NCBI GenBank assembly: GCA_028713935.1
Contig: JAQTNI010000004.1
Location: 1 to 32,000, forward strand
DNA length: 32,000 nt
From: Candidatus Iainarchaeum sp.
GTDB lineage: Archaea > Iainarchaeota > Iainarchaeia > Iainarchaeales > GCA-2688035
Reading direction: 5' to 3'
The notes below the pieces were generated by a model. That model made no database searches and was not told where the DNA came from. It saw nothing but the letters and a program-made list of their open reading frames with translations. The position numbers and the translations under genes are program-made. This document shows, in pieces, positions 4,950 to 31,072 of this stretch (position 1 is the stretch's first letter; each line of letters begins with the position of its first letter).

Positions 4950-5012
4950 CAGGGGAATAGCGGAAATTTGCTGCCTGGAATTGTTTTTAAAGCAAAAAAC
5001 CGTTTCTTTTTC

Positions 5013-6545
5013 ATGAAATGCCTTTTGCAGACTTTTCAGGATAATGAAGTTTCACCTTGCATTGATGGGCCTCTGCAGGCTTCTGTTTTCTGGCTCACTG
5101 GATTAAAGTATTTGGAGGAAAAAAAAGCTGTCCTGGCAGAGTTTTCCTGCTCAGGCTTGAAGAGGACAGCCAGCATGGCTTTTTTTCCTTCTCTTTTGGT
5201 TTCAAAAAAAGCGCTTTCCAAAGAAGCCCTGAAGCGCGAGATTTCGCTTCTGGGAAACCAAAAATTTGAATTGATTGAAATGGATTTTTCCTTCAAAGTT
5301 GTTTCTTCAAATTTTTCTGTTTTGCAGAAGCTTGCAAACAATATTTTTTCCTCGGCAGGCGCTCTTGCAATAATGCCCTCTCCCGAAAGGCAGTTTTTGA
5401 TTGAAAAAGACTGGGGCTTTTTTGATGCCTTTGCATTTGAAGAAACTTCAAAAGGGGAAATTCCAGTGAAAACAAATTGCCTTGATTTGCCAAATGTAAA
5501 AACAGGCTTTTTTTCAGAGCCATTGCCGAAAACAATTGCGGAACTCTCAAAAATTGATTCCGCAGAAGCCTGCTCTGTGCTTTCCCTTGTTTCGCTTTCA
5601 AAAATACTTTTTTTGCCGCTTGAAAAAATTCCCGGAACAGGCTTTTTGAGGCAGGAAATTTTTTTGGAAAACCATTTGTTCAAAAACAATTTTGCGCCAA
5701 GGGAAATGTCAAAAAAAACAACCAATGAAACCCACAAAACGCAATTCGCGAGTTTTTTAAGGGGCACTCCTGAATTTGACACTGCCCCCCTGATTCCAAT
5801 GCTTTTGACAAATGCCTGCTATAACCTTGGCTTTGAAACAATTGATTGCGATTGCTGTTCCCCTGAAAAAATAACCGCAAAAAATATTTTGTCGAGTTCC
5901 CTTGTTGAAGTCGAATTTTTGAAGGAAGCGTTTTATTTTGATTCGGCAAGCGCTTCTTTTGCGGATTTTTTCCATGAAAGCAATCCCCTGAAAGAAAACC
6001 GCTTAAGGAGAAAACGCGAATTTTTTTTAGGGCAATTTCCTGTCGGGCCATTTTGCAGGAACCAGAAAAGCATTGTTCCCCTTGCAGACGCCATTGCGCT
6101 TGAGCAGGGCAAAGACGCAAAAATTCTTGGTTTCAGCGAAAGGCACTGGTTCTGCATGGAAAAAGAATCTTTTTTGTCAAAACTAATCCTTGAAACAAGG
6201 GAAAAAATTTTTGGCCTGGACTTGTTTATTGAAAAAGCCCATGAAAAATGCTTTTCGGGAAACAATGTAATAACAGGCTTTGCCGCACTGGAAAATGATT
6301 TTGCTGTCCAGCTTGCCCTTGAGTGCAAAAAAAACCTTGAATTTTTTTTGAACAACCTTCCTGCGCACATTTCCGATTCGGAAAGCAGGTTTTTTAACAC
6401 TGCAATTGCAGGAGCTGTTGATGCAATACAGGCAAGCGCGGCAAAGGCTTTTGGCAAAACCCGCTTGCAGGAAGCAGAAGCGGAAAGCGCCATGCAAACC
6501 CCGTTAAGCGAATACTTGCTTTCAATTTCGAAAAAAGCGGGATAA
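5013..6545 (+). CDS. family-B DNA polymerase-like protein, apparently lacking the exonuclease domain and the motif C aspartates
   Basis: ORF 4968..6545, first ATG at 5013. By-eye collinear similarity to archaeal PolB covers several segments. [20 protein letters not shown] resembles [38 protein letters not shown] resembles [47 protein letters not shown] resembles [33 protein letters not shown] resembles [24 protein letters not shown] lies where FGFKVLYIDTDG (motif C) is expected. The protein is about 265 aa shorter than a canonical PolB. Confidence 0.4.
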   Translation: [510 protein letters not shown]

Positions 6546-7764: not shown

Positions 7765-9840
7765 TTATACAAAAATTCCTGATTTTTCCGGCACTGTTGC
7801 GCCGTCGTTTTCCTTGTCTCTTTTCAAAACATAAATGCTTCCGGAAGCAGCGTTTTCCATTTCCCTGTCATGGGTTATAATAAAAATCTGTTCAACAAGC
7901 TCCGGCAATTGTTCCCGCATTATTTTGCCAAGAATGCTTACTGCCTGCCTGTCAAGATTGTGGGTTGGCTCATCAAGAATAAGCCAGGACAAATTCTGCG
8001 TTAACACCAAAGAAAACGCAATCCTGATGCAGAGCGCTGCAGCACTTCTTTCTCCTCCGCTTAAAATTCCCTCCACCCTTACCCAGTTGCTATCCCTGCC
8101 CCGCACTTTCAGCTCATAGCTTCCTTTTTCTATTTCAAGCCTTGCGCTTGTAAAATCCCCGTAAGGGTAGATTTTCTGCCAGATATTGTCCATTGCAATA
8201 TTTGTGTTTTCAACAAGCTCTTCGCGCAGCTCTCCCTGCGCAGCAATAAGGGAATTCGTGAACAAAACCCCTTTTTCCTGCGCCTTTGAAAGCCTTCCAA
8301 TTGATTGTTCAAGTTCAGCCACTTGTTTTTTTTCTTCCTCTGCTTTTTTCAGGCCTGCTTCAAGTTCCGCAAGCAATTCATTATTTGACTTTTTTTCGTT
8401 TTCAATGCCTTGCACTGCAGCGCTTGCTTCTGCAAGTGCTTTTTGGTGCTTTTTCAGGTTTTCCTCGTCAAAGCAGGTTTTTTCAATTTCCCTTGAAAGC
8501 TTTTCATTTTCAAGTTCCAGTTGGCTTAATTGCTTTTCCTCTTTTTCCCTGTTTTTCTTTTCCGATTCAATTTCCCTTAACAGGCTTTTCAGTTCAATAA
8601 TTTCCGCTTTTGTTTTTTCCCTGTTTGCAGCAAATTTTTTTTTAAGGCTGTTTTTTTTGTCAAGTTCTGCCTTTAGTTTTTTCATTTTTTCAATAAGCGC
8701 ATCCTGCTTTTTTTCAATTGCCTCTTTTTCCAGCCCATTTTCTTCCTGCAGCTCTTTTTTTGTATGCCCTGAAAGGTCCCGCTTGCAGACAGGGCAGTTT
8801 GCATTTGCCTGTTTCAGCTCGCGCAAAGCCTTTTCAATCTGAAGAATTTTTTCTTCAAAAAGCCCCTGTTCCCTTATCAGGGAATTTGCATTTTCCTGAA
8901 TAGTCCCAATCTCAGATTCATTAAGCTTTTCTTCTTCCAATATTTTTTCAATTTCTTTTTCTTTTTCAATTGCCTCTTTTGCAATTTTTTCAGGGCTTTT
9001 CCCTTCAAGCAGCCTTGCGGCCTCTGCAATGCTTCTTCGCAGTTCTTTTGCAGTTGCCTCTCCCGATACAAGCCTTTCTCTTAATGCGCGGAATTCTTTC
9101 CACTGTTTTTCCAGTTTTGCTCCCAGTTCCCTTAACTTTTCAACCTCTGCTTTTTTCTCCACGATTTTTTTCCTAGCCTCTTCCTGTTCTTTCTGCTTTT
9201 GCCTGATTTTTTGCCCTGTTGCAGTAATTTCTTTTTCGTCAAGATTTTTTTTCCTGCTTTCAAGCCAGGATTTTCTTTCCGCAATACTGTCTTTCAGCCT
9301 GTTTGAAATGCTTACAGAATTTGACCTTGCATTCTCATATTTTTGCAGGTCAAGGAGCTCGTCAAACTGGATTTTTCTCTGTGAAGGGGAGAGTTTCAAA
9401 AAATAGTCAATCTGGTTCTGTTCAGAATAAACTGCCCTGCTGAACAAGTCATAATTTATGTCAAGGCATTGTTCTATTGCTGCTGTTGCATCGGTTGTTT
9501 TCGGGCCAGCCAGAAACTTGCCATCACAGGACAATTTTGCCTCGTTAGTTCCTTTTCTCTTGATTGTTCTTTCAACAACAAAATTTTTGCCTGCATAATC
9601 AAATTCAAGCATTACTCTTGCAAAATTTTCCTTGTTGGGCTTGCTTGTGATTATTTCTTCCAGAGAAACCCGTTTTGCCTGCAGGGCAGGAAAGGTTCCA
9701 AAAAGCGCAAAGCAGATTGCATCCATGACAGAGCTTTTTCCCGAGCCCATCTGCCCTACCAGTACATTTGTGCCTTTTTCAAATTCAAACTCGCTTTTTG
9801 CATGAGTGCGCCAATTCTCAAGAACAACACGCTTAATCAT
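7765..9840 (-). CDS. rad50: Rad50 DNA double-strand break repair ATPase
   Basis: ORF 7765..9969, conserved start at ATG 9840 (MIKRVVLENWRTH...). Walker A is GQMGSGKSS. There is a long K/E-rich coiled coil with the zinc hook CPVC. The ABC signature is LSGGERSAAAL and the Walker B/D-loop is LILDEPTHNLD. Confidence 0.9.
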   Translation of the reverse strand: MIKRVVLENWRTHAKSEFEFEKGTNVLVGQMGSGKSSVMDAICFALFGTFPALQAKRVSLEEIITSKPNKENFARVMLEFDYAGKNFVVERTIKRKGTNEAKLSCDGKFLAGPKTTDATAAIEQCLDINYDLFSRAVYSEQNQIDYFLKLSPSQRKIQFDELLDLQKYENARSNSVSISNRLKDSIAERKSWLESRKKNLDEKEITATGQKIRQKQKEQEEARKKIVEKKAEVEKLRELGAKLEKQWKEFRALRERLVSGEATAKELRRSIAEAARLLEGKSPEKIAKEAIEKEKEIEKILEEEKLNESEIGTIQENANSLIREQGLFEEKILQIEKALRELKQANANCPVCKRDLSGHTKKELQEENGLEKEAIEKKQDALIEKMKKLKAELDKKNSLKKKFAANREKTKAEIIELKSLLREIESEKKNREKEEKQLSQLELENEKLSREIEKTCFDEENLKKHQKALAEASAAVQGIENEKKSNNELLAELEAGLKKAEEEKKQVAELEQSIGRLSKAQEKGVLFTNSLIAAQGELREELVENTNIAMDNIWQKIYPYGDFTSARLEIEKGSYELKVRGRDSNWVRVEGILSGGERSAAALCIRIAFSLVLTQNLSWLILDEPTHNLDRQAVSILGKIMREQLPELVEQIFIITHDREMENAASGSIYVLKRDKENDGATVPEKSGIFV

Positions 9841-9918
9841 AGCATCAATAAAAAACCAGCAATGGAAATTAATTAAAATGGAATGAGAAAAGAAAGAAAT
9901 AATAAAAGAGCCAAATAA

Positions 9919-10389
9919 ATGGTTATTATGAGAAAACCGCGCAAAGCAATTCACAAGGTTCCTCGCCAAGTAAGGCGACTAGTGAGTGGAGAACAAAATT
10001 TGGCAGAAGCGCACGCCGAAATACTCACGCCACTGGTTTTGGTCAAAGCCAAAAAGTTAGATCCCAAAAAAATGTCAATCTTTAAAATATGGGCGGCTTC
10101 TAAAGCTGTGGAGTGGCTGCCGGAAGGCGTTCCCTACAAAATTTCTAGCGAGAAAATAGTTAGAAATGCAGGGGGCCTTTTTGTTGCAGGCTTGAACAGG
10201 CCTTTAATTCTGGTTGCTGATTTTTTAAGTCCTGCTGAAAGACGCAATTCAGCCCGGCACGAGCTTCACGAATGGGAAGTGCATTTCGCGCGTTTTCCAC
10301 ATGTTGACCTTTCACATGCGCATGCTGTAAGAAGAGAGAACCCAAGATTGAGAAGAAGCACTGTAATTAAAGTAGCGGAGAACGATTAG
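9919..10389 (+). CDS. hypothetical basic protein with HELHEWEVH motif
   Basis: 156-aa ORF divergent from rad50. It is visibly richer in G+C than its neighbours: the 60-nt line starting at 9961 has 32 G/C, against 20 in the rad50 line starting at 8581. I recognise no family. Confidence 0.45.
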   Translation: MVIMRKPRKAIHKVPRQVRRLVSGEQNLAEAHAEILTPLVLVKAKKLDPKKMSIFKIWAASKAVEWLPEGVPYKISSEKIVRNAGGLFVAGLNRPLILVADFLSPAERRNSARHELHEWEVHFARFPHVDLSHAHAVRRENPRLRRSTVIKVAEND

Positions 10390-10415: not shown

Positions 10416-10673
10416 TTATAGCAGTGTCATGTTTTCGACTTCGGCTTCTTCAATGCTTTTCAAAGAGGAAACTTCTTTTTGCAGGGCTTCCAAAGCGCCT
10501 TCTTTTTTTTCTTCAATGAGAATTGCTGCCTTGATTATTTCAATTCCAAAGCCAATAGGCACTTTCTGGATGTCTTTAACTGTGCCGTTCTTGATTGCCT
10601 TTATTTCCTTTAAGGCGGTTTCAATCTGTTCTTCTTTTGGAGTAATTTTCATTATTACAATTGTTTTTCCCAT
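10416..10673 (-). CDS. ef1b: translation elongation factor aEF-1 beta
   Basis: 85-aa product reading VIMKITPKEEQIETALKEIKAIKNGTVKDIQKVPIGFGIEIIKAAILIEE...EEAEVENMTLL. Size and pattern are typical of aEF-1beta. Confidence 0.85.
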   Translation of the reverse strand: MGKTIVIMKITPKEEQIETALKEIKAIKNGTVKDIQKVPIGFGIEIIKAAILIEEKKEGALEALQKEVSSLKSIEEAEVENMTLL

Positions 10674-10691
10674 CAGGACACCAAAAGCAGT

Positions 10692-10847
10692 TTAAGGACC
10701 TTCGAATCCGCATTCTTCGCATTTGTATGTTTTTGCTGTTTTCCTGCAGTGAAGGCAGCGCAGGATGCGAGTTTTCCCGCATTGCGGGCATTTGAATTCC
10801 ACATAGTCATTTACGACTTCTCTGTTGCAAGTGCTGCAAGTTTTCAA
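10692..10847 (-). CDS. Zn-ribbon protein of the type commonly encoded next to aEF-1beta (COG2888-like)
   Basis: This ORF is not in the supplied track because it has a TTG start and only 51 aa. The product is (M)KTCSTCNREVVNDYVEFKCPQCGKTRILRCLHCRKTAKTYKCEECGFEGP, with four CxxC pairs. It lies directly upstream of ef1b on the same strand. Confidence 0.7.
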   Translation of the reverse strand: MKTCSTCNREVVNDYVEFKCPQCGKTRILRCLHCRKTAKTYKCEECGFEGP

Positions 10848-10885
10848 TCAAATCACCATTAATAACAAAACCAATCAAATAATCA

Positions 10886-11066
10886 GATTATATTTATTTG
10901 CAATTAAACAATTCTTTAATCAGAGAGGTTTTTAAAGTTAATTCCAAGAGTATGGCCCGCTAATTTTTCCTCGAACCACCCCCAATTAATCGAATTTTTT
11001 CTTAGGACTCGAATTTTCTCGGCTTAAACCTTTGCCTTCGTTTAACTCAGGACAAAGGATTTAATG
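10886..11066 (+). repeat. copy A of a diverged repeat module (ABCE1-promoter-like segment, ATGGCC remnant, conserved 35-mer, hairpin)
   Basis: GATTATATTTATTTGCAATTAAAC (10886-10909) resembles 27559-27580 and 29245-29268. The 35-mer CCAATTAATCGAATTTTTTCTTAGGACTCGAATTT (10982-11016) matches 27728-27762 at 32 of 35 positions. A hairpin follows it (CCTTTG 11029-11034 pairing with CAAAGG 11053-11058). Confidence 0.7.
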
Positions 11067-11118
11067 CCTCCAAAATTCGCAAGACGTCCAAGAAAAAATT
11101 CTTTTTTATTTTGGAGGC
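11066..11118 (+). promoter_or_regulatory. 11-bp perfect hairpin that sequesters the GGAGG Shine-Dalgarno-like sequence of the following small ORF
   Basis: GCCTCCAAAAT (11066-11076) is the exact reverse complement of ATTTTGGAGGC (11108-11118). The 3' arm contains GGAGG (11113-11117), 8 nt upstream of ATG 11126. Confidence 0.5.
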
Positions 11119-11125
11119 GGTTCGA

Positions 11126-11272
11126 ATGAACTTTGAAAAATTTGAGTTTCCTCTTCCAACACTGGAAGAGATAAAAATAGCAAAAAGGCTTGCAGCAAGC
11201 AATCCAGAAGACTTGGATGATAGAGACATCTGGATTCTGAACGAATTCTGCGGAAGTGATTCCTATGAATAG
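11126..11272 (+). CDS. 48-aa hypothetical protein, overlapping and probably translationally coupled to the LAGLIDADG gene
   Basis: ATG 11126 has GGAGG upstream. The product is MNFEKFEFPLPTLEEIKIAKRLAASNPEDLDDRDIWILNEFCGSDSYE. Its stop (TAG, 11270-11272) overlaps ATG 11265 of the next gene. It is too short for the supplied track. Confidence 0.4.
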   Translation: MNFEKFEFPLPTLEEIKIAKRLAASNPEDLDDRDIWILNEFCGSDSYE

Positions 11273-12179
11273 CGGAAATTCACAGCTCCAGAATTGTTTT
11301 AAACTGGAAAAACAGGGTTCTTTGAGTGAGCCCTGTATGGACCAAGAGATGACACCTGAACTGGCAGAAATTTGTGGGATTCATGCAGGTGATGGTTATT
11401 TGAGAAATGATGGAAAACACAGGGAATTGGACATTAGTGGTGGCTTTGATGAGCAAGGCTATTATGATACCCATGTTGTGCCACTATTTGAAAAATTTTT
11501 TAATATCAAAATAGTGCCAAGGTTTTTTCTTCACAGAGGGACTTATGGTTTTGTAATAAGAGACAGGGCGGTAATTGAGTTTATGCACACTCTGGGCTTT
11601 CCTTATGGAAAAAAAACTTTGACAGTTAGTGCTCCAGAGACAATATTGCAGTCTAAAGATTTGGATATCATTTATCGTTTTGTTCGAGGAATTTTTGATA
11701 CTGATGGATGCCTTTCTTTCAGGAAACGAGAAGGTTCAGGTTATTCAAAGATCTACTTGAAGAGACACACATACCCCAGAATATCATTAAGTGTATGCTC
11801 TAGAAATCTCTGGAGCGGCGTTTGTATTCTCCTGGCCAAAACAGGATTTCAGTTTACCGTCTCATATCAAAGACCAAAGAATAACGAAAGTCAAAAATAT
11901 CTCGTGATGCTAAGAGGTGATGCTAATGTAATAAATTGGATTAATAACATTGGTTTCAAAAATCCAATAAAATATAATCGGTTCCTAATTTGGAAAAAAT
12001 TTGGATTTGTGCCCTCTGGATTAACTCATGAAGACCAAAAAAAAATTCTAAACGGCACAATAGACCCAAATTCATACTATGTTGAAGAACTTCTGGAAAA
12101 TGATGGTCTTGTTCCAATGCTAGTTAAACGAAGGCTTAAGGTCAGCCAAAACTTTGAATCTTTTATTCCTAAAGATTAA
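11265..12179 (+). CDS. double-motif LAGLIDADG homing endonuclease, free-standing
   Basis: ORF 11256..12179 (GTG), first ATG at 11265. It has two LAGLIDADG-type motifs: LAEICGIHAGDGYL and FVRGIFDTDGCLS. It is not embedded in a visible intron or intein host gene. Confidence 0.85.
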   Translation: MNSGNSQLQNCFKLEKQGSLSEPCMDQEMTPELAEICGIHAGDGYLRNDGKHRELDISGGFDEQGYYDTHVVPLFEKFFNIKIVPRFFLHRGTYGFVIRDRAVIEFMHTLGFPYGKKTLTVSAPETILQSKDLDIIYRFVRGIFDTDGCLSFRKREGSGYSKIYLKRHTYPRISLSVCSRNLWSGVCILLAKTGFQFTVSYQRPKNNESQKYLVMLRGDANVINWINNIGFKNPIKYNRFLIWKKFGFVPSGLTHEDQKKILNGTIDPNSYYVEELLENDGLVPMLVKRRLKVSQNFESFIPKD

Positions 12180-12208: not shown

Positions 12209-12284
12209 GGGCCTGTAGCCTAGCCTGGATATGGGCGCTCCGCTTCGGACGGAGAGGTCGGGGGTTCAAATCCTCCCAGGCCCG
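12209..12284 (+). tRNA. tRNA-Arg (anticodon UCG)
   Basis: I folded a 76-nt cloverleaf by hand. The acceptor stem is GGGCCTG/CAGGCCC and the D stem is GCCT/GGGC. The anticodon stem is CTCCG/CGGAG with loop CTTCGGA (anticodon TCG). The T arm is GGGGG-TTCAAAT-CCTCC and the discriminator is G. No CCA is encoded. Confidence 0.9.
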
Positions 12285-12309
12285 CAGTTATTTTTCTTAT
12301 TGAAGCAAT

Positions 12310-22125: not shown

Positions 22126-23703
22126 TTGTCCTCTGTAAAAAAATTTTCAAGGCAGATAATTGCACTGGTTGAAGAAGGCAAAATAAAAAACAAGCAGGAG
22201 CTTAATAAAAAAAAGCTTTTTTTGTGCAAAAAATTTTTTTTGAAACAGGTGCCTTCAAACCCGGATATCCTGGCTTTTGCGAAAAACCCAAGCGCTGCAA
22301 CAAGGCGCATTCTCGGGATAAAGCCGACAAGAACCCTTTCCGGAATTGCAATTGTGGCATTAATGCCCCCGCCTTCAAACTGCCCTGGCAAATGCATTTA
22401 TTGCCCCAATTCTTTGATAAAAGAAAAAACACCAAAAAGTTATACTGGCAGGGAACCTGCAACAATGCGCGCAGTAATGTCCGGTTTCAGCGCAAAAAAA
22501 CAAATTTTTGCAAGGCTGAAATCACTGGAAGAAACAGGGCATAACACTGGCAAAATTGAATTGGTTGTAATGGGCGGGACTTTTTTGGCTTCCCCTCTTC
22601 CAAAGCAAAAAAAATTTGTTCTGGACTGCCTGAACACTGTTTCAGGAAAAAAAACTGTTTCGCTTGAAAAGGCGCGCCTCTTTTCCGAAAAATCAGAAAA
22701 GCGCATTGTGGGAATGGCTTTTGAAACAAGGCCTGATTTTTGCGGAAAAAAAGAAATTGGCAATATGCTTTCTTTTGGAGCCACGCGCGTTGAGCTTGGA
22801 GTCCAAAATGTTTTTGACGATGTTTACAAAAAAATAAACAGGGGACATTCAGTTGCGGATGTTGCAAAAGCAACCCAATTGCTCAAAGATTCTTCTTTCA
22901 AAGTAACCTATCATTTCATGCCGGGCCTGCCTGGCAGTTCTTTCAAGAGGGATTTGCTTGGAATAAAAAAAATTTTTTCAGAACAACAATTCAGGCCTGA
23001 TTCATTGAAAATTTATCCCTGCCTTGTAATTGAAGGCACAGAGCTTTTTGAGCAATGGAAAAAAGGCCTTTTTGAGCCGCTTTCAACTGAAAGTGCTGTG
23101 AGGCTTGTTTCAAAAATAAAGGAATTTGTGCCTTCTTATGCGAGAATAATGCGGGTGCAGAGGGACATTCCCCATACTCTTGTAAAGGCGGGAGTGCAGA
23201 AAACAAATTTGAGGCAGCTTGTTGCAGACCACATGCACAAAACTGGCAGAAAGTGCAATTGCATCCGCTGCAGGGAAGCAGGCTTGCTTTCCCTCAAAAA
23301 TGAGCCTGTTTCTTTTCTGGAAAAGGGAAAAATTTTTGTTGAGCCTTATGATGCGAGCAATGGAAAAGAATTTTTTATTTCTTTTGAAAATCCTTCAAAA
23401 AGCGTTTTGTATGGGTTTGCAAGATTAAGAATTCCTTTTCAGCCTTTTCGAAAAGAAATTTCAGCCGAAACCGCTGTTATCCGCGAGCTGAGGGTTTTTG
23501 GAGAATCCCTGCCATTGGCTTCTTCAGAGCCATCTGCTTTCCAGCACAAGGGCCTTGGAAAAATGCTTTTGCAGAAAGCAGGGGAAATTGCGCTTTCTCA
23601 GGATTCAAAAAAGCTCCTTGTAATTTCCGGCTTGGGCGTGAAACAATATTACTTTTCGCTTGGCTTTGAAAGTGATGGCTTTTTTGTTTCAAAAAAACTC
23701 TGA
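22126..23703 (+). CDS. elp3: Elp3-family radical SAM / GNAT tRNA U34 modification enzyme
   Basis: 525 aa. The radical-SAM cluster motif is CPGKCIYCP and the body is Elp3-like (VMGGTF, ETRPD, RVELGVQ). The C-terminal GNAT domain ends in QHKGLGKMLL. The start is TTG. Confidence 0.9.
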   Translation: MSSVKKFSRQIIALVEEGKIKNKQELNKKKLFLCKKFFLKQVPSNPDILAFAKNPSAATRRILGIKPTRTLSGIAIVALMPPPSNCPGKCIYCPNSLIKEKTPKSYTGREPATMRAVMSGFSAKKQIFARLKSLEETGHNTGKIELVVMGGTFLASPLPKQKKFVLDCLNTVSGKKTVSLEKARLFSEKSEKRIVGMAFETRPDFCGKKEIGNMLSFGATRVELGVQNVFDDVYKKINRGHSVADVAKATQLLKDSSFKVTYHFMPGLPGSSFKRDLLGIKKIFSEQQFRPDSLKIYPCLVIEGTELFEQWKKGLFEPLSTESAVRLVSKIKEFVPSYARIMRVQRDIPHTLVKAGVQKTNLRQLVADHMHKTGRKCNCIRCREAGLLSLKNEPVSFLEKGKIFVEPYDASNGKEFFISFENPSKSVLYGFARLRIPFQPFRKEISAETAVIRELRVFGESLPLASSEPSAFQHKGLGKMLLQKAGEIALSQDSKKLLVISGLGVKQYYFSLGFESDGFFVSKKL

Positions 23704-26463: not shown

Positions 26464-27507
26464 TTAATACTGCAGTTTGAATTTTAAAATAGCAGCAATT
26501 CCGCCAAACCCTTCAAGTTTTTTTCCAGGTTCCTGTTCTGCATTGATTATGTGCACAATGCCCTTGTTTTTTTCAGTTGCATCCATCAGGGAAATAATTT
26601 TTTCCCTGTTTTCAAAAAGCAGTTTGTCAAGCACAAGCAGTTCTTTTGCAGCGCCAAGTTCCACTGCTTTTTTCACCTGTTCAAATCCGTATTCCGCAAA
26701 ACCAGTGTTTTTTCCCATGTTCAAAAGCAATTCTTCCAAAAGCCTTTCTTCAAGGACAATCTGCTTTTGCCTTGAAATTTTGTCCAAAACATCGCTTTTC
26801 AATAATTCTCTCAGGCCAGTAATTCCAGTTGAATTTGTGCTTGCAAACAATGCCCCTGCAAAGCCTTTTTCCTGAAGCCATTTTTTCAAAGCATCTTTTT
26901 CAAAGCCAGGCCCTGCAAAAACAATTGTGCCCGCCTTGATTTCCTTTGCTTTTTGCAGGATTTCTGAAAAATATTTTTTTTGGGAGCCTTCTTCCTGTTC
27001 AAATCTTTTTCCTCTTGAAGAACCCCTTACAAGGCCTCTTGGTTCCAATTCAAATTCCTTCAAGAGGCCAAAGCTTGCGCTTTCTTCATCCAGAACAATT
27101 AACAGTGTGTTTTCGCTTTGCGAAGCCTTTTTTGCCTTTTCAAGCCTTTCAACCTGGTAATTTTTCAATTCCTTTTTTTTGATTGAAACAGGCTTGTTTA
27201 ATTCTATTTCAATTGTCTGGTGAGAGCCAAGCTCTTCAAATTCTGCAGGGGAACATTCAACAAGCACTCCCTGTGCCCTTAATTGCCCTGAAAACCTGTG
27301 AAAATCAAGCTTTTCAATTTCAATTGAAACAAACAGCTTTACTCTTTCGGATTTTTGCTCAACATCCTTTGCCTTTATTCTCCTGTCAGTCTCTCCGCTG
27401 ACCAAGTCTCCTTTTTCAATCACTTTTTCCAAATGCCACAAGTCATCTGCATTTTCTGGAACGACTTTTAGCAGATTAAGCTTCCTGTCAATTGAAAGAA
27501 TTTTCAT
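26464..27507 (-). CDS. pelA: Pelota (aDom34) ribosome rescue factor
   Basis: ORF 26464..27537, ATG at 27507 (MKILSIDRKLNLLKVVPENADDLWHLEKVI). It shows the typical three-domain eRF1-like pelota pattern. Confidence 0.9.
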   Translation of the reverse strand: MKILSIDRKLNLLKVVPENADDLWHLEKVIEKGDLVSGETDRRIKAKDVEQKSERVKLFVSIEIEKLDFHRFSGQLRAQGVLVECSPAEFEELGSHQTIEIELNKPVSIKKKELKNYQVERLEKAKKASQSENTLLIVLDEESASFGLLKEFELEPRGLVRGSSRGKRFEQEEGSQKKYFSEILQKAKEIKAGTIVFAGPGFEKDALKKWLQEKGFAGALFASTNSTGITGLRELLKSDVLDKISRQKQIVLEERLLEELLLNMGKNTGFAEYGFEQVKKAVELGAAKELLVLDKLLFENREKIISLMDATEKNKGIVHIINAEQEPGKKLEGFGGIAAILKFKLQY

Positions 27508-27558
27508 TTTCCCACAAAAAACAAGTGCAGGGAACAATTTAAAACTGTTTTAATGCAC

Positions 27559-27675
27559 GATTATTTTGTTGCAAATTAACGTGATTTGATATGGCTGGTT
27601 TTACAAAAGGAAAGCAGCGAGTAGCTGTTGTTGACAAAGAAAAAGGTATCAATGGTAGGTGTCATATTTGTTTTT
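27559..27675 (+). pseudogene. diverged duplicate of the ABCE1 promoter region and first ~28 codons
   Basis: The ATG 27591 peptide MAGFTKGKQRVAVVDKEKGING matches the true ABCE1 N-terminus MAGFSKGKMRVAVIDKDICING at 16 of 22 positions. Upstream, GATTATTTTGTTGCAAATTAACGTGATTTGAT resembles 29245-29281. Homology fades after about 27675. The listed ORF 27591..27791 continues into unrelated repeat sequence. Confidence 0.7.
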
Positions 27676-27689
27676 TAATTGGGACAACG

Positions 27690-27800
27690 CTACTTTTTTT
27701 GTTATTTTCTTCCAATCTTCTCCGTCTCCAATTAACCAAATTTTTTCTTAGGGCTCGAATTTCATTAGCTTTGACGGCAATTGCCGTTTAGCGAGGAAGA
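27690..27800 (+). repeat. copy B of the repeat module (conserved 35-mer plus palindromic hairpin)
   Basis: CCAATTAACCAAATTTTTTCTTAGGGCTCGAATTT (27728-27762) matches 10982-11016 at 32 of 35 positions. The flanking TTTTCTTCCAATCTTC resembles TTTTCCTCGAACCACC in copy A. The perfect palindrome ACGGCAATTGCCGT (27774-27787) follows. Confidence 0.7.
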
Positions 27801-27852
27801 TTTATAAATACTATTAATTTACTATTGATAGTAATCAATAGTAATTGATAGT
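27801..27852 (+). promoter_or_regulatory. TATA box plus iterated, alternating ATTGATAGT / ATCAATAGT operator-like repeats upstream of the AlbA_2 gene
   Basis: TTTATAAATA lies at 27801-27810. ACTATTGATAGTAATCAATAGTAATTGATAGT (27821-27852) has about 10-bp periodicity and contains the inverted repeat ACTATTGA/TCAATAGT. It ends directly at GTG 27853. Confidence 0.45.
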
Positions 27853-29250
27853 GTGATTTTTTTGGATTTGAAGCAAGTTTTACAAGTCATTGATTCGGGG
27901 GAATCCCAAGAAATTGAGTTTAAGGAATCTTTTCATAGTTCTCAAAAGTTTTCCGAGATAATGTGTGGTTTTGCAAATACTTATGGGGGCATAATCCTAT
28001 TGGGGGTTAATAACAAAAAGCAGGTTATTGGTGTTTTGGACAAAATTGATGAAGTGCAACAAAAAATATCGTGTTCTGCCCAGTCTGTTTCTCCTCCAGT
28101 ACTGCCTTCTATTGAAGTTCATGAAGTGAACGGAAAAAAAATTGTTGCAATAGTTGTCCAGCGGGCTATTGATAGTGCTTTTCATACTTTTCAGGGGGTG
28201 ATTTGGGTAAAAATAGGCAGCACTCTTAAAAAAATAGAAGGAAACCAAATTGTAGATTTTTTGAGAGGCAAACAAATATTGTGTTTTGATGAAACTCCAA
28301 CAAATGCTAAAATTGAAGACTTGGACATAAACAAGCTGAATGCATATCTCAAAGCAAGAAAGCAAGCAGATTATTTCGAATCGCATTCTATTGAGGATTT
28401 TCTTGTGAGTCTAAAGCTTGCTACAAAAAACGGGGATTTAAAAATAAAAAATGCAGCTTTGCTGGTTTTTGCAAAAGACCCCATTTTTTTTAATCCGCAA
28501 ATAGAAATGAAACTAGTCCGTTTTGATGGCAACGAACCAGTAAAAATAATAGCTCATGAACTGGTTCAATCTGGCTTAGTAGAAGGGATAGAAAAGGCAC
28601 TTTCATTTGTTAAGTCAAATATTTCCAAAAGCATTCAAGTAAAGCTTGATGCAAAAAGAGAGGAGCAATTCCAATACCCAATAGATGTTATACGAGAAGC
28701 AATAGTAAATGCGGTTGCACACAGGGATTATTTCAGCAAAGATGCCATACAAATTTATATTTTTAATGATCGCCTTGAAATAACTAATCCGGGTTCTTTG
28801 CCACTGGGCCTGCCAAGAGAATTGTTTGGAACCCTCTCTGTTCAACGAAATCCTCTGACATATAGAATACTTAGAGACTATGGCTATGTTGAAGGCCTTG
28901 GCTCTGGGGTGCCGAGAATGATAAACAGCATGAGAAAACAGGGATTAGCTGATCCGGACTTTGGGATATATGAACATTTTTTTAGAGCAATATTAAAAAG
29001 CAGGCAAAGTTCATCAAAGCCAACCAAGAGTCATGCTGACCTTAATAAAAGGCAAATAAAAGCAATAGAATTCTTAGGGAAAAACAAGTCAATAAAAACA
29101 AAAACATACATGAAAATAAACAATGTTTCATTTGGCACTGCAAGGCTTGACATTAACGAAATGATAAAATTAAGCTATCTTAAAAAAATAGGTTCTTACA
29201 AGGGAGCTTACTATATACTAAAAACTCAAGAACCAAGTAAAGAGGATTAA
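27853..29250 (+). CDS. AlbA_2 (Schlafen-like) + HATPase_c_4-like + C-terminal wHTH protein (COG2865-type putative regulator, often mislabelled RecG-like)
   Basis: 465 aa with a GTG start. The N-terminus reads ESQEIEFKESF...GFANTYGGIILLGV (AlbA_2). The middle reads REAIVNAVAHRDYFSKDAIQIYIFNDRLEITNPGSLP...RNPLTYRILRDYGYVEGLGSGVPRM. The C-terminal HTH-like region is LNKRQIKAIEFL. Confidence 0.8.
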   Translation: MIFLDLKQVLQVIDSGESQEIEFKESFHSSQKFSEIMCGFANTYGGIILLGVNNKKQVIGVLDKIDEVQQKISCSAQSVSPPVLPSIEVHEVNGKKIVAIVVQRAIDSAFHTFQGVIWVKIGSTLKKIEGNQIVDFLRGKQILCFDETPTNAKIEDLDINKLNAYLKARKQADYFESHSIEDFLVSLKLATKNGDLKIKNAALLVFAKDPIFFNPQIEMKLVRFDGNEPVKIIAHELVQSGLVEGIEKALSFVKSNISKSIQVKLDAKREEQFQYPIDVIREAIVNAVAHRDYFSKDAIQIYIFNDRLEITNPGSLPLGLPRELFGTLSVQRNPLTYRILRDYGYVEGLGSGVPRMINSMRKQGLADPDFGIYEHFFRAILKSRQSSSKPTKSHADLNKRQIKAIEFLGKNKSIKTKTYMKINNVSFGTARLDINEMIKLSYLKKIGSYKGAYYILKTQEPSKED

Positions 29251-29281
29251 TTTTTATTTTGCCAATTTGATGTGATTTCTA

Positions 29282-31072
29282 ATGGCAGGGTTTAGCAAAG
29301 GGAAGATGCGTGTCGCAGTTATAGATAAAGATATTTGCATTAATGGCAACGGATGCAATTTTTATTGCGCCTCAGTTTGTCCCATTAATCGAAGTGGAAA
29401 AGAGTGTATTGTTTTGGGAGAAGACAACAAGCCTATTATTAATGAAGATTTGTGTACGGGTTGCGGAATTTGCCCTAAAAAGTGCCCTGTTTTCTGTATA
29501 ACAGTCATCAATCTTGCCTCTGAAAAGCATTCAACTCCTGTTCACCAATATGGCGTGAATGCTTTCAGGCTTTTCAATTTGCCAAATCCAAAGCAGAATT
29601 CTGTTGTCGGCTTGCTTGGCAGGAATGGAATTGGAAAAACAACTGCCTTGAGAGTGCTTGCCGGGCAATTAGTGCCGAATTTTTCTGTTTTTGAAAAGCC
29701 TGCTGATTACAAAAAAGCAATTGAATCTTTTAAGGGAAAAGAATTGCAGGGTTTTTTTGAAAGGCTTTCAAAAAAGCAAATCCGGCTTTCTTACAAGCCG
29801 CAAAAGGTTGATGAGCTTGCAGAAATTTTCAAGGGCAGGGTAGTAAGGGAACTGCTTGAAAAAGCAGATGAAAAAAAGCAATTATCAAAAATTGCAGCAG
29901 AATTGGGAATTGATTCCATTCTTGGCAGTGAAATTTCAAAGGTTTCAGGGGGAGAACTGCAAAGAATTGCAATTGCAGCCTGTATGCTGAAAAAAGCTGA
30001 TATTTATTTTTTTGATGAGCCTTCTTCTTACCTTGATGTTAGCCAGCGCTTAAAGGTCGCGGAATTGATAAGGGGCTTGCTTGATGAAAGCACCAGCATT
30101 ATTGTTGTGGAGCATGACCTTGCGCTTTTGGACTATTTGAGTGATTATATTCACATTTTTTATGGCCAAAAATCTGTTTATGGCATAGTGAGCGGCATTA
30201 AAAGCGTGCGCAATGGCATAAACGAGTTTCTTGATGGATTTCTCCCTGAAGAAAACACAAGATTCAGGGAAAAAGAGCTTTCTTTTGGAGTAAAACCCCC
30301 TGTACTTTCAGAAAAGCGCAGGATACTTGTCGAATACCCTGTTTTGCAAAAAAAACTCGGAAATTTTTCAATGCAGACAAGCGCAGGAAGCTTTATGGAA
30401 GGAGAAGTAGTCGGGGTTTTGGGGCCGAATGCAATTGGAAAAACAACTTTTGTAAAATGCCTTGCGGGAGAAATCCTGCCTGACAATGCAAAATTAAATT
30501 TCAAATTAAAAATTGCCTACAAGCCGCAATACCTTAAGCCTCCGGAAGAAGTGCTGGTGCGGCAATTGTTTTCTGCAAAAGAGATTAATCAGCAATTGTT
30601 TGAAACAGAGATTGACAGAAAGCTTAATATTAAAACACTGTTTGAACACAAGCTTTCCGAGCTGAGCGGAGGGGAACTGCAAAAAGTCAGCATTGCCTAT
30701 AACCTTTGCCTTGGCTCTGACCTGATTCTTTTGGATGAGCCCTCCGCTTTCATTGACATTGAGGACAGGTTAAGGGTTGCCGACTGCATAAGAAGCGTTG
30801 TTTCAAGCACAAAAAAAATTGCCTTGGTTGTTGACCATGACATTTTGTTCCAGGATTACATTTCAGACAGGTTAATTGTTTTTTCAGGCCAACCTGCAAA
30901 ACAGGGAATTGCTTCAAAGCCAATGCCGATGCACGAAGGCATGAACCTCTTTTTGAAAGAAATGAATATTTCTTTCAGGAGAGACCCCCAGACAGGCAGG
31001 CCAAGGGCAAACAAAATTGATTCCCAAAAAGACAAAGAGCAAAAAAAGAAAGGAGAATACTATTACCAATAA
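29282..31072 (+). CDS. abce1: ABCE1 / RNase L inhibitor-type ribosome recycling ATPase
   Basis: 596 aa. The N-terminal 4Fe-4S ferredoxin-like Cys clusters are CASVCP and CTGCGICPKKCP. It has two ABC cassettes: GRNGIGKTT and GPNAIGKTT; signatures VSGGELQR and LSGGELQK; Walker B motifs YFFDEPSSYLD and ILLDEPSAFID. Confidence 0.95.
   Translation: MAGFSKGKMRVAVIDKDICINGNGCNFYCASVCPINRSGKECIVLGEDNKPIINEDLCTGCGICPKKCPVFCITVINLASEKHSTPVHQYGVNAFRLFNLPNPKQNSVVGLLGRNGIGKTTALRVLAGQLVPNFSVFEKPADYKKAIESFKGKELQGFFERLSKKQIRLSYKPQKVDELAEIFKGRVVRELLEKADEKKQLSKIAAELGIDSILGSEISKVSGGELQRIAIAACMLKKADIYFFDEPSSYLDVSQRLKVAELIRGLLDESTSIIVVEHDLALLDYLSDYIHIFYGQKSVYGIVSGIKSVRNGINEFLDGFLPEENTRFREKELSFGVKPPVLSEKRRILVEYPVLQKKLGNFSMQTSAGSFMEGEVVGVLGPNAIGKTTFVKCLAGEILPDNAKLNFKLKIAYKPQYLKPPEEVLVRQLFSAKEINQQLFETEIDRKLNIKTLFEHKLSELSGGELQKVSIAYNLCLGSDLILLDEPSAFIDIEDRLRVADCIRSVVSSTKKIALVVDHDILFQDYISDRLIVFSGQPAKQGIASKPMPMHEGMNLFLKEMNISFRRDPQTGRPRANKIDSQKDKEQKKKGEYYYQ

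Follow-up and report, generated by a model that had tools for sequence, protein, structure and literature searches.

The DNA studied here, called the window throughout, comprises the first 32,000 nucleotides (nt) of contig JAQTNI010000004.1 from the archaeon Candidatus Iainarchaeum sp. Its G+C content is about 39% and its genes include those for NurA, HerA, Rad50, aEF-1beta, Pelota and ABCE1. The proteins ABCE1, AlbA_2 and Rad50 each agree at 100% identity with proteins of one Candidatus ainarchaeum contig, in keeping with an assignment to the Iainarchaeota, a DPANN phylum. A 35-mer, identical at 32 of 35 positions, occurs in two intergenic regions of this window. The first site, copy A, lies between a minus-strand Zn-ribbon/aEF-1beta operon (10416–10847) and a LAGLIDADG-like gene, which is followed by a gene for tRNA-Arg. 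The second, copy B (35-mer at 27728–27762), is found between the gene for Pelota (26464–27537, minus strand) and an AlbA_2/HATPase_c_4 gene, with ABCE1 next. A preliminary description had assigned to both sites one module of six parts (a promoter-like segment, ATGGC followed by CGCTA, a T/C-rich stretch, the 35-mer, a hairpin and a TATA-like box) and had suggested that it may be the conserved end or leader of a mobile cassette. In our analysis, the 35-mer of copy A makes up the core of the 5' arm in a long, rod-shaped leader. The explanation that we regard as probable, judged from sequence comparison, is a leader that silences translation in a mobile endonuclease cassette, accompanied in the window by one decayed fragment, copy B. 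All features are compiled in Table 1.

Table 1. Position of the leader, its fragment and the surrounding features (window coordinates, unless a locus beginning with L is named)
Feature	Position	Strand	Remarks
Copy A, complete rod-shaped leader	10976–11120	+	nhmmer 158 bits; covariance model 192 bits, E 1e-43
35-mer of copy A	10982–11016	+	core of the 5' arm
Copy A, helix 1	10976–10983 with 11113–11120		CCACCCCC with Shine-Dalgarno GGAGGCGG
Copy A, helix 2	10992–11001 with 11092–11101		GAATTTTTTC with GAAAAAATTC
Copy A, helix 3	11005–11008 with 11086–11089		GGAC with GTCC
Copy A, helix 4	11010–11017 with 11072–11079		CGAATTTT with AAAATTCG
Copy A, helix 5 and apical stem	11021–11068		includes the invariant TTTAAT, 11060–11065
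Small ORF	11126–11272	+	48 aa (MNFEKFEFPLPTLEEIK...); Shine-Dalgarno within helix 1
LAGLIDADG homing-endonuclease-like gene	11265–12179	+	304 aa; motifs ICGIHAGDGYL and VRGIFDTDGCL
tRNA-Arg(TCG)	12209–12285	+	30 nt past the endonuclease stop codon
Intergenic promoter DNA, outside the repeat	10886–10945		orthologous to L003 104–166
Relic mini-ORF ATGGCCCGCTAA at methyltransferase deletion site	10952–10963	+	window 10800–10990 compared with L003 1–200 and 1040–1110
Copy B left, pseudo-duplicate of ABCE1 promoter and first ~30 codons	27559–27680	+	68% identity to 29252–29346
Copy B middle, leader fragment	27693–27775	+	T-run, CCGTCTCC (27722–27729), 5' arm ending ...GCTTTGAC
Palindrome GGCAATTGCC and junction	27776–27799		read from the sequence; aligned by neither model
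AlbA_2 own upstream element (ATTTATAAATACTATTAATTTACTATTGATAG...), outside the leader	27800–27852	+	includes the ATTTATAAAT box
AlbA_2/HATPase_c_4 gene	27853–29250	+	Pfam; between Pelota and ABCE1
Functional ABCE1 gene	29252–31072	+	coding sequence 29282–31072; second copy of the duplicated promoter/5' end, 29252–29346
tRNA genes beside cassettes	L001 1885–1959; L005 3988–4062; L007 122–217; L013 3722–3794; L016 2599–2672; L004 2417–2575; L024 2014–2088		
tRNA 3'-half fragment abutting a leader	L006 2400–2441		

A family of structured leaders

The 35-mer is a genuine repeat. Scanning the window at up to three mismatches located it at those two sites only, against a chance expectation of 0.00, and the similarity reaches 44 nt at 84% identity (self-BLAST E 2e-6, the second-best self-similarity of the window). 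With nhmmer, copy B matches a profile of the leader over 53 nt at E 4e-7. When the two intergenic regions were aligned locally, the score was 32, compared with 12.5 ± 1.7 for dinucleotide shuffles, none of which reached it in 500 trials.

Further copies in relatives, which the preliminary description had predicted, were indeed found. A 21-nt exact core pattern matched 16 loci in GTDB contigs, taken as one genome per species; 15 of these loci are homologous, with at most four in any metagenome-assembled genome (MAG), and nearly all of them belong to Iainarchaeum/ainarchaeum-type MAGs. The same pattern occurs at 17 loci in metagenome contigs, and viral contigs held no match to the core pattern of the 5' arm. 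In total, the leader is present in about 30 copies across MAGs and metagenomes of the Iainarchaeota (DPANN). Typical Iainarchaeota-type cassettes also come from contigs labelled otherwise, L005 as a Chloroflexota MAG and L010 as a Thaumarchaeota MAG; these contigs are probably mis-binned. The leaders are approximately 145–165 nt long and 84–97% identical between copies, those of a single genome being 94–97% alike. With an nhmmer profile built from 15 leaders, full-length members score 130–169 bits; copy B reached 26 bits, over profile positions 9–61 only. Rfam 15 holds no family for the leader, the window matching tRNA models only. An E-value scan of 10850–11300 gave miRNA-precursor models as best matches, at 23–25 bits compared with gathering scores of 122–230.

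From the copies a common order of elements was derived. The 5' half consists of a T-run, the motif (C/U)CACCUCC, about 12 nt, then GAAUUUUUUC-UUA-GGAC-U-CGAAUUUU-CUC-GGCUUAAAC and a variable stem-loop. The 3' half continues with GAUUUAAUGCC-UCC-AAAAUUCG-CAAGAC-GUCC-AC-GAAAAAAUUC, about 11 nt, GGAGGUG(G/A), about 5 nt and an AUG. In the base of the hairpin, (C/U)CACCUCC resembles the 3'-terminal sequence of 16S rRNA and pairs with GGAGGUG(G/A). Copy A folds into a single rod with a minimum free energy of -57.8 kcal/mol (z -6.9). For 24 distinct leaders, RNAalifold yielded 46 pairs in five helices, with 97.6% of all cells paired and changes on both sides in nine pairs and 49 cells. The covariation score was 0.142, compared with 0.067 for shuffles. 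Each of these values, percentage paired, both-side changes and covariation score, was reached by 0 of 500 shuffles; the count of further pair types was not above them (180 of 500). When the structure was slid by one to three columns, only 37–60% of the cells remained paired.

The clearest single compensatory case is found in a diverged second leader of one locus (L016b), where the whole helix CGAAUUUU/AAAAUUCG has been swapped for GUGCGUUG/CAACGCAC. In the basal helix, the anti-Shine-Dalgarno-like CCACCUCC pairs with the Shine-Dalgarno sequence of the small open reading frame (ORF) that follows. This helix has 9 bp, with 94.9% of its cells paired; its last, outer Shine-Dalgarno position alternates between U-A and C-G (12:10), and in L003 it is formed by CCGCCUCC and GGAGGCGG. 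The sense strand contains 20 G.U cells, and 10 A.C cells would become G.U if the antisense strand were the one that folds; this mildly favours a fold of the sense strand.

The complementary strand of copy A folds as well, at -69.2 kcal/mol and a z of -8.9, which makes the antisense fold of the window the more stable one. Strong folding on both strands is what might be expected of a separate gene for a small RNA, on either strand, that merely lies next to the endonuclease genes. We consider this extremely improbable. The leader always stands at a fixed distance from the Shine-Dalgarno sequence and ATG of the small ORF, and a full copy lacking the small ORF and the endonuclease gene was not present among those recovered. 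Rfam offers no match to such an RNA, and reading the antisense strand turns the 20 G.U cells into A.C mismatches.

A side observation concerns the 4-bp GGAC/GUCC helix (11002–11009, 11080–11091), which carries a 3-nt UUA bulge on one strand and a 6–7-nt CAAGAC bulge on the other. The bulges are nearly invariant in sequence, and the arrangement bears a likeness to a relaxed bulge-helix-bulge of the archaeal splicing endonuclease. Judged by eye, this helix was also considered as a K-turn or a canonical bulge-helix-bulge, and both were set aside; it departs from the K-turn consensus.

The cassette behind the leader

The leader is the front of a compact, putatively selfish cassette in which it is followed by a small ORF of 33–49 amino acids (aa) and a LAGLIDADG homing-endonuclease gene. 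Wherever the downstream DNA of a leader was readable, the small ORF comes next and its stop codon overlaps the start of an ORF of 300–440 aa; in the window this stop lies 6 nt past the start of the endonuclease ORF (ATGAATAG). Two types of small ORF exist, one of 49 aa (MNFEKFEFPLPTLEEIK...) and one of 33–35 aa (MSFSQKLSETKGNPFG...). Copies of the small ORF are 81–97% identical at the nucleotide level, and no family in Pfam or NCBIfam corresponds to them. In the small ORF of the window (11152–11172), a local hairpin of 8 bp joins GGAAGAGA to the conserved FPLP codons (UUUCCUCUUCC). CCUCUUCC itself resembles an anti-Shine-Dalgarno sequence and could pair with the Shine-Dalgarno sequence instead. 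In some cassettes, such as L006 (~2740–2900) and L015, the small ORF and the endonuclease gene are separated by an additional hydrophobic ORF of about 50 aa (e.g. MTSSLLLYVLASLFGLLILILLDAYGF...), which has no Pfam match.

Both LAGLIDADG motifs of the window's endonuclease contain the acidic residue, and equivalents are found in the proteins of the relatives. Against Pfam LAGLIDADG_3 the protein scores 19.9 bits, just under the cut-off of 22.5. Among the cassette proteins of relatives six of eight match this family, five of them above the cut-off (27.9–53.6 bits), and some have HTH_3 domains. The window protein is 29–30% identical to the cassette proteins of L007 and L016 (E 1e-30 to 1e-33). 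In NCBIfam it weakly matches the intein endonuclease regions of RFC, DnaB, RtcB and V-ATPase; among solved structures there was no significant sequence match. Neither the ABCE1 nor the LAGLIDADG ORF of the window gave a match when looked up as an exact protein, the gene starts differing from the database calls. Like free-standing and intein LAGLIDADG_3 endonucleases, the cassette proteins, predicted endonucleases, have two acidic LAGLIDADG-type motifs and profile matches and occur in several copies beside conserved genes, as in intronless homing. They differ in being encoded outside introns and inteins, and in having an N-terminal extension of about 20 codons (MNSGNP...), a common small ORF and a structured leader. 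As a side note, the Rad50 gene of the window (7765–9969) is without an intein, and the Rad50 homologues P0245, P0252 and P0284 (about 1210 aa, from some related archaea) contain an intein with a LAGLIDADG_3 domain.

The bodies of the endonucleases are only 25–37% identical in amino acid sequence between copies, orthologous pairs excepted. At the N-terminus of the window's protein a conserved MNSGN is followed by an internal Met after about 24 codons. The part common to the cassettes ends after about 20 codons (MNSGNP...), right before this internal Met, which looks like the original start of the endonuclease. One pair of loci presents the same endonuclease gene with (L016, 4130–4510) and without (L013, 4440–4560) leader and small ORF. 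In L013, a deletion has spared the T-run and the linker of about 20 codons; therefore, hairpin and small ORF were lost as one unit.

Several cassettes occur per Iainarchaeota genome, often against tRNA genes. At the 3' end of the cassette, the neighbour is a tRNA for Arg (window), Thr, Val or Ile (three times). At the 5' end it is tRNA-Pro (twice) and in addition a possible intron-containing tRNA, for which ARAGORN proposes Phe with the anticodon in an atypical position. This association suggests tRNA genes or their flanks as homing targets. Several of the endonuclease ORFs extend into a tRNA gene on the opposite strand.

As expected of a homing-endonuclease cassette, the element is free of a transposase or integrase. 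No flanking direct repeats were seen around the cassette, and its inverted repeat is internal, forming one hairpin, which sets the element apart from miniature inverted-repeat transposable elements and insertion sequences. The direct repeat D8 (4955–4991 and 11267–11303) was considered as a trace of a second cassette within the window and rejected as a chance match, the ORFs 4968–6545 and 22126–23703 being unrelated.

Proposed silencing of translation and other candidate roles of the leader

In the mechanism that we propose, a transcript entering from upstream would fold into the rod and hide the ribosome-binding site, which would leave the endonuclease untranslated, its translation being coupled to that of the small ORF. 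A TTTAAT, preceded by CAAAGG, is invariant inside the 3' arm. Transcripts starting there would be devoid of the 5' arm and hence translatable. In silico, the Shine-Dalgarno sequence has a mean probability of 0.02 of being unpaired in full leaders and of 0.41 in transcripts begun about 22 nt past TTTAAT. The leader probably keeps the endonuclease genes untranslated. Oligo-T runs terminate archaeal transcription, and those in the 5' arm (T6 and T4) could also serve as terminators.

The principle of such silencing is known from phages. In phage T4, ribosome-binding sites of I-TevI/II/III, segB and mobE are sequestered by hairpins on read-through transcripts, which is bypassed by internal late promoters; lying within or behind the inhibitory sequence, these yield translatable transcripts (PMC2988022). 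In common with these leaders, a stable hairpin pairs the Shine-Dalgarno sequence, here within a covarying basal helix. The TATA-like TTTAAT in the 3' arm is a candidate for the internal promoter. Unlike them, the host is an archaeon instead of a phage and the endonuclease is of the LAGLIDADG type instead of GIY-YIG or HNH. Furthermore, the hairpin described here is far longer (46 bp, ~150 nt), its sequence is conserved in about 30 copies although their endonuclease bodies differ widely, and an upstream small ORF would mediate the coupling; promoter and translational effect are predictions in the present case. Other leaders that sequester a Shine-Dalgarno sequence, such as RNA thermometers, riboswitch platforms and the fold-back of hok mRNA, share the pairing with an anti-Shine-Dalgarno sequence in the same RNA. 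They differ from the rod, which has no evident ligand domain or weak thermometer-like helix and is very stable (about -58 kcal/mol). The motif itself, with its length and conservation, the coupling through a small ORF, the N-terminal linker and the archaeal host were absent from Rfam and from the literature searched.

Several observations weigh against silencing or limit its support. The basal helix of the window carries two A.C mismatches. The compensatory cells mostly follow the split of the leaders into two subfamilies and thus stand for few events; we estimate about 6–8 independent ones. There is no conserved TATA-like box upstream of the 5' arm. In the cassettes with a 49-aa small ORF, to which that of the window belongs, the Shine-Dalgarno sequence is predicted to be mostly paired even in truncated transcripts (unpaired probability 0.02–0.14), and therefore escape through an internal promoter is weakly supported for this subgroup. 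Finally, both arms are largely invariant, unpaired positions included, which points to a sequence-specific constraint, such as protein binding or promoter elements, beyond pairing.

This last point leads to a reading of the palindrome as a divergent promoter and operator. Each arm would offer an element resembling a B recognition element plus TATA box (CAAAGG-ATTTAAT rightward, CAAAGG-TTTAAG leftward), together with sites for a dimeric regulator, perhaps the helix-turn-helix domain of the endonuclease or the product of the small ORF. Indeed, 23–24 of 24 leaders show no change in TTTAAT/TTAAA or in helices 2 and 4 while adjacent pairs covary, suggestive of sequence-specific reading, and the HTH_3 domains of some cassette proteins would fit a regulator. 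However, the compensatory changes preserve pairing and not sequence, up to the exchange of the entire helix in L016b, and the distance separating the arms differs by about 20 nt among leaders, which is unsuited to a fixed spacing of half-sites. The involvement of the Shine-Dalgarno sequence would also be left unexplained. We therefore find such a promoter/operator distinctly unlikely.

Whatever its role, the leader is a strongly conserved structured RNA/DNA motif, and the compact cassette architecture has proliferated in the very small genomes of the Iainarchaeota, where it often adjoins tRNA genes. If translational silencing is true, the way in which phage T4 tames its homing endonucleases would extend to archaea, and the leader would be a rare, testable instance of Shine-Dalgarno-based translational control in DPANN archaea. 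The covariance model can be used to annotate such cassettes and to flag relics which otherwise would be seen as unexplained repeats or false modules.

Locus history at the two sites

The unit common to copies A and B is, by alignment, restricted to some 55–80 nt, comprising the T-run and the 5' arm, instead of about 180–250 nt. The left flanks of the two sites gave a score that was reached by 50 of 500 dinucleotide shuffles, the right flanks (hairpin and A/T box) one that was reached by 402 of 500. Hence there is a shared core and no six-part module; four of the six listed parts are locus-specific or owned by neighbouring genes. A search with a degenerate pattern of the promoter remained without matches owing to indels.

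For copy A, the left flank is explained by an orthologous locus of a relative (L003) that has the same start of the Zn-ribbon gene and the same promoter DNA. The order there is Zn-ribbon gene, promoter region, an ORF for a UbiE-type methyltransferase (882 nt) and then the leader. Window positions 10886–10945 are about 93% identical to L003 104–166. The gene for this UbiE-type S-adenosylmethionine methyltransferase has been cleanly deleted in the window (10946–10975, corresponding to L003 167–1090), leaving ATGGCCCGCTAA. Therefore, the promoter-like segment and ATGGC..CGCTA of copy A are locus history and not part of the repeat. The preliminary description had derived the latter from a version like copy B by a deletion of about 95 nt; what is found are the scar of a methyltransferase deletion of about 880 nt in copy A and the duplicated 5' end of ABCE1 in copy B. 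Likewise, homology of the promoter-like segment, stated for A, B and ABCE1 alike, holds for B with ABCE1 only. A search through Rad50 homologues for an empty orthologous site of copy A recovered none, since L043 breaks off in front of the site, at the gene for aEF-1beta, and L044 does not extend far enough. The leftover promoter of the methyltransferase lies about 30–40 nt upstream of the leader in the window, and the leader may be transcribed from this orphan promoter here.

Copy B is a mosaic. Its left part is continuous with the native spacer between Pelota and ABCE1, and the ABCE1-like 5' remnant recognized there earlier is real: 27561–27655 and 29252–29346 form the best self-similarity of the window (E 8.6e-9). 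In its middle, a 5' arm is followed by neither a 3' arm, a small ORF nor an endonuclease gene, and tblastn found no relic of the latter two elsewhere in the window. Against the full covariance model, copy B obtained 15.3 bits (E 0.13), a value equal to that of random AT-rich sites. The hairpin of copy A corresponds to the apical stem conserved in the leader, and the palindrome of copy B (GGCAATTGCC) has no sequence relation to it; GTTTAGCGAGG may derive from the GATTTAATGCC of the leader. The TATA-like box, which had been proposed as homologous at both sites, belongs in copy B to the upstream element of AlbA_2. This element has 84–97% matches directly upstream of AlbA_2 homologues at five other loci in unrelated contexts (L038–L042), none of which has a leader fragment. 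Thus, by its composition, copy B is a non-functional relic with the 5' arm only, stranded between an ABCE1 pseudo-duplicate and an unrelated mobile AlbA_2 gene, which brought along a promoter/operator of its own. It would mark either the former site of a cassette or a piece of one that was dragged in.

Taken together, these comparisons render a mobile end or leader built of six parts and serving varied cargo (LAGLIDADG, AlbA_2) very unlikely. Speaking for it are the significant similarity around the 35-mer, the position of both sites 5' of accessory genes and the fact that the family does consist of cassettes lacking a transposase. Yet neither flank rises above shuffles, that of copy A is orthologous promoter DNA plus a deletion scar, and the box of copy B sits in an element of AlbA_2, whose homologues elsewhere do without a leader. 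Moreover, every full leader with readable downstream DNA precedes a small ORF and a LAGLIDADG gene, and copy B fails the structural model. What survives of the cassette idea is the location of the 35-mer in the leader of a selfish element lacking transposase and integrase; the composition of the module and AlbA_2 as its cargo do not.

A second half-leader was found in L021 (100–159, minus strand), about 100 nt from the contig end. There, a near-consensus 5' arm runs into an unrelated GC-rich hairpin (CCCCCAGT..ACTGGGGG) and the break lies at the apex of the hairpin, the same point as in copy B. These breaks bear on a reading in which the palindrome acts as DNA. A cruciform or single-stranded hairpin would be a site of recombination or nicking, attC-like or with a hot spot at its tip, and would allow exchange of 5' modules and occasional capture of foreign genes. 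Two independent half-leaders end at the apex, after ...CTTAAAC and ...CTTTGAC, where an unrelated short GC hairpin takes over; within the leader, length and sequence vary most in the apical stem-loop; leaders are nearly uniform within a genome; and identity falls sharply from leader and small ORF to the endonuclease bodies. On the other hand, a basal helix made of a Shine-Dalgarno sequence and its complement is sensible for RNA only, the sense strand has twice the number of G.U pairs, the window shows no recombinase gene linked to the element, and there are but two half-leaders, one of them at a contig end. We regard recombination at the DNA level as unlikely; it retains some weight on account of the abrupt module boundary and the two half-leaders that break at the apex.

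As in integron gene cassettes with their attC sites, an imperfect palindrome with conserved extrahelical bases lies beside a variable gene, and the repeat precedes different ORFs. In contrast to integrons, a LAGLIDADG gene is the cargo in every case, the ribosome-binding site forms part of the palindrome and the cassettes are scattered beside tRNA genes and not arrayed; among the window ORFs scanned, there was no integrase domain. In a further reading, leader, small ORF and MNSGNP linker together may be a portable 5' module which is swapped among unrelated endonuclease genes by recombination, the apex being the point of breakage and capture that joins foreign genes such as AlbA_2. We hold this to be unlikely; if true, it would be an Iainarchaeota-specific platform for gene shuffling rather than a mere translational leader.

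The insertion that contains copy B can be delimited by comparison with L034, the closest relative with context, whose ABCE1 is 82% identical. There, Pelota and ABCE1 are back to back, about 70 nt apart and without an insert; therefore about 1.6 kb were inserted between them in the window. The AlbA_2 protein is 64–76% identical across several DPANN phyla in differing neighbourhoods, where ABCE1 of comparable lineages reaches about 55%, and thus AlbA_2 looks horizontally mobile in its own right. Its upstream element (TTTATAAATACTATCAATTTACTATTAATTACTAT...) is found in several DPANN phyla (L042 1340–1690, L038 3870–3990, L041 690–830) and forms a tandem array of 76-nt units in L042; it resembles a set of operators that moves with the gene. 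The promoter and first ~30 codons of ABCE1 are present on both sides of the 1.6-kb insert, for which a homing scar, one-sided illegitimate recombination and an old duplication are candidate origins. Over its first ~90 codons, the functional ABCE1 is 60–66% identical to L034 (960–1260), compared with about 80% for the remainder. A foreign origin of this 5' end was considered and set aside, L034 being itself the outlier in this part.

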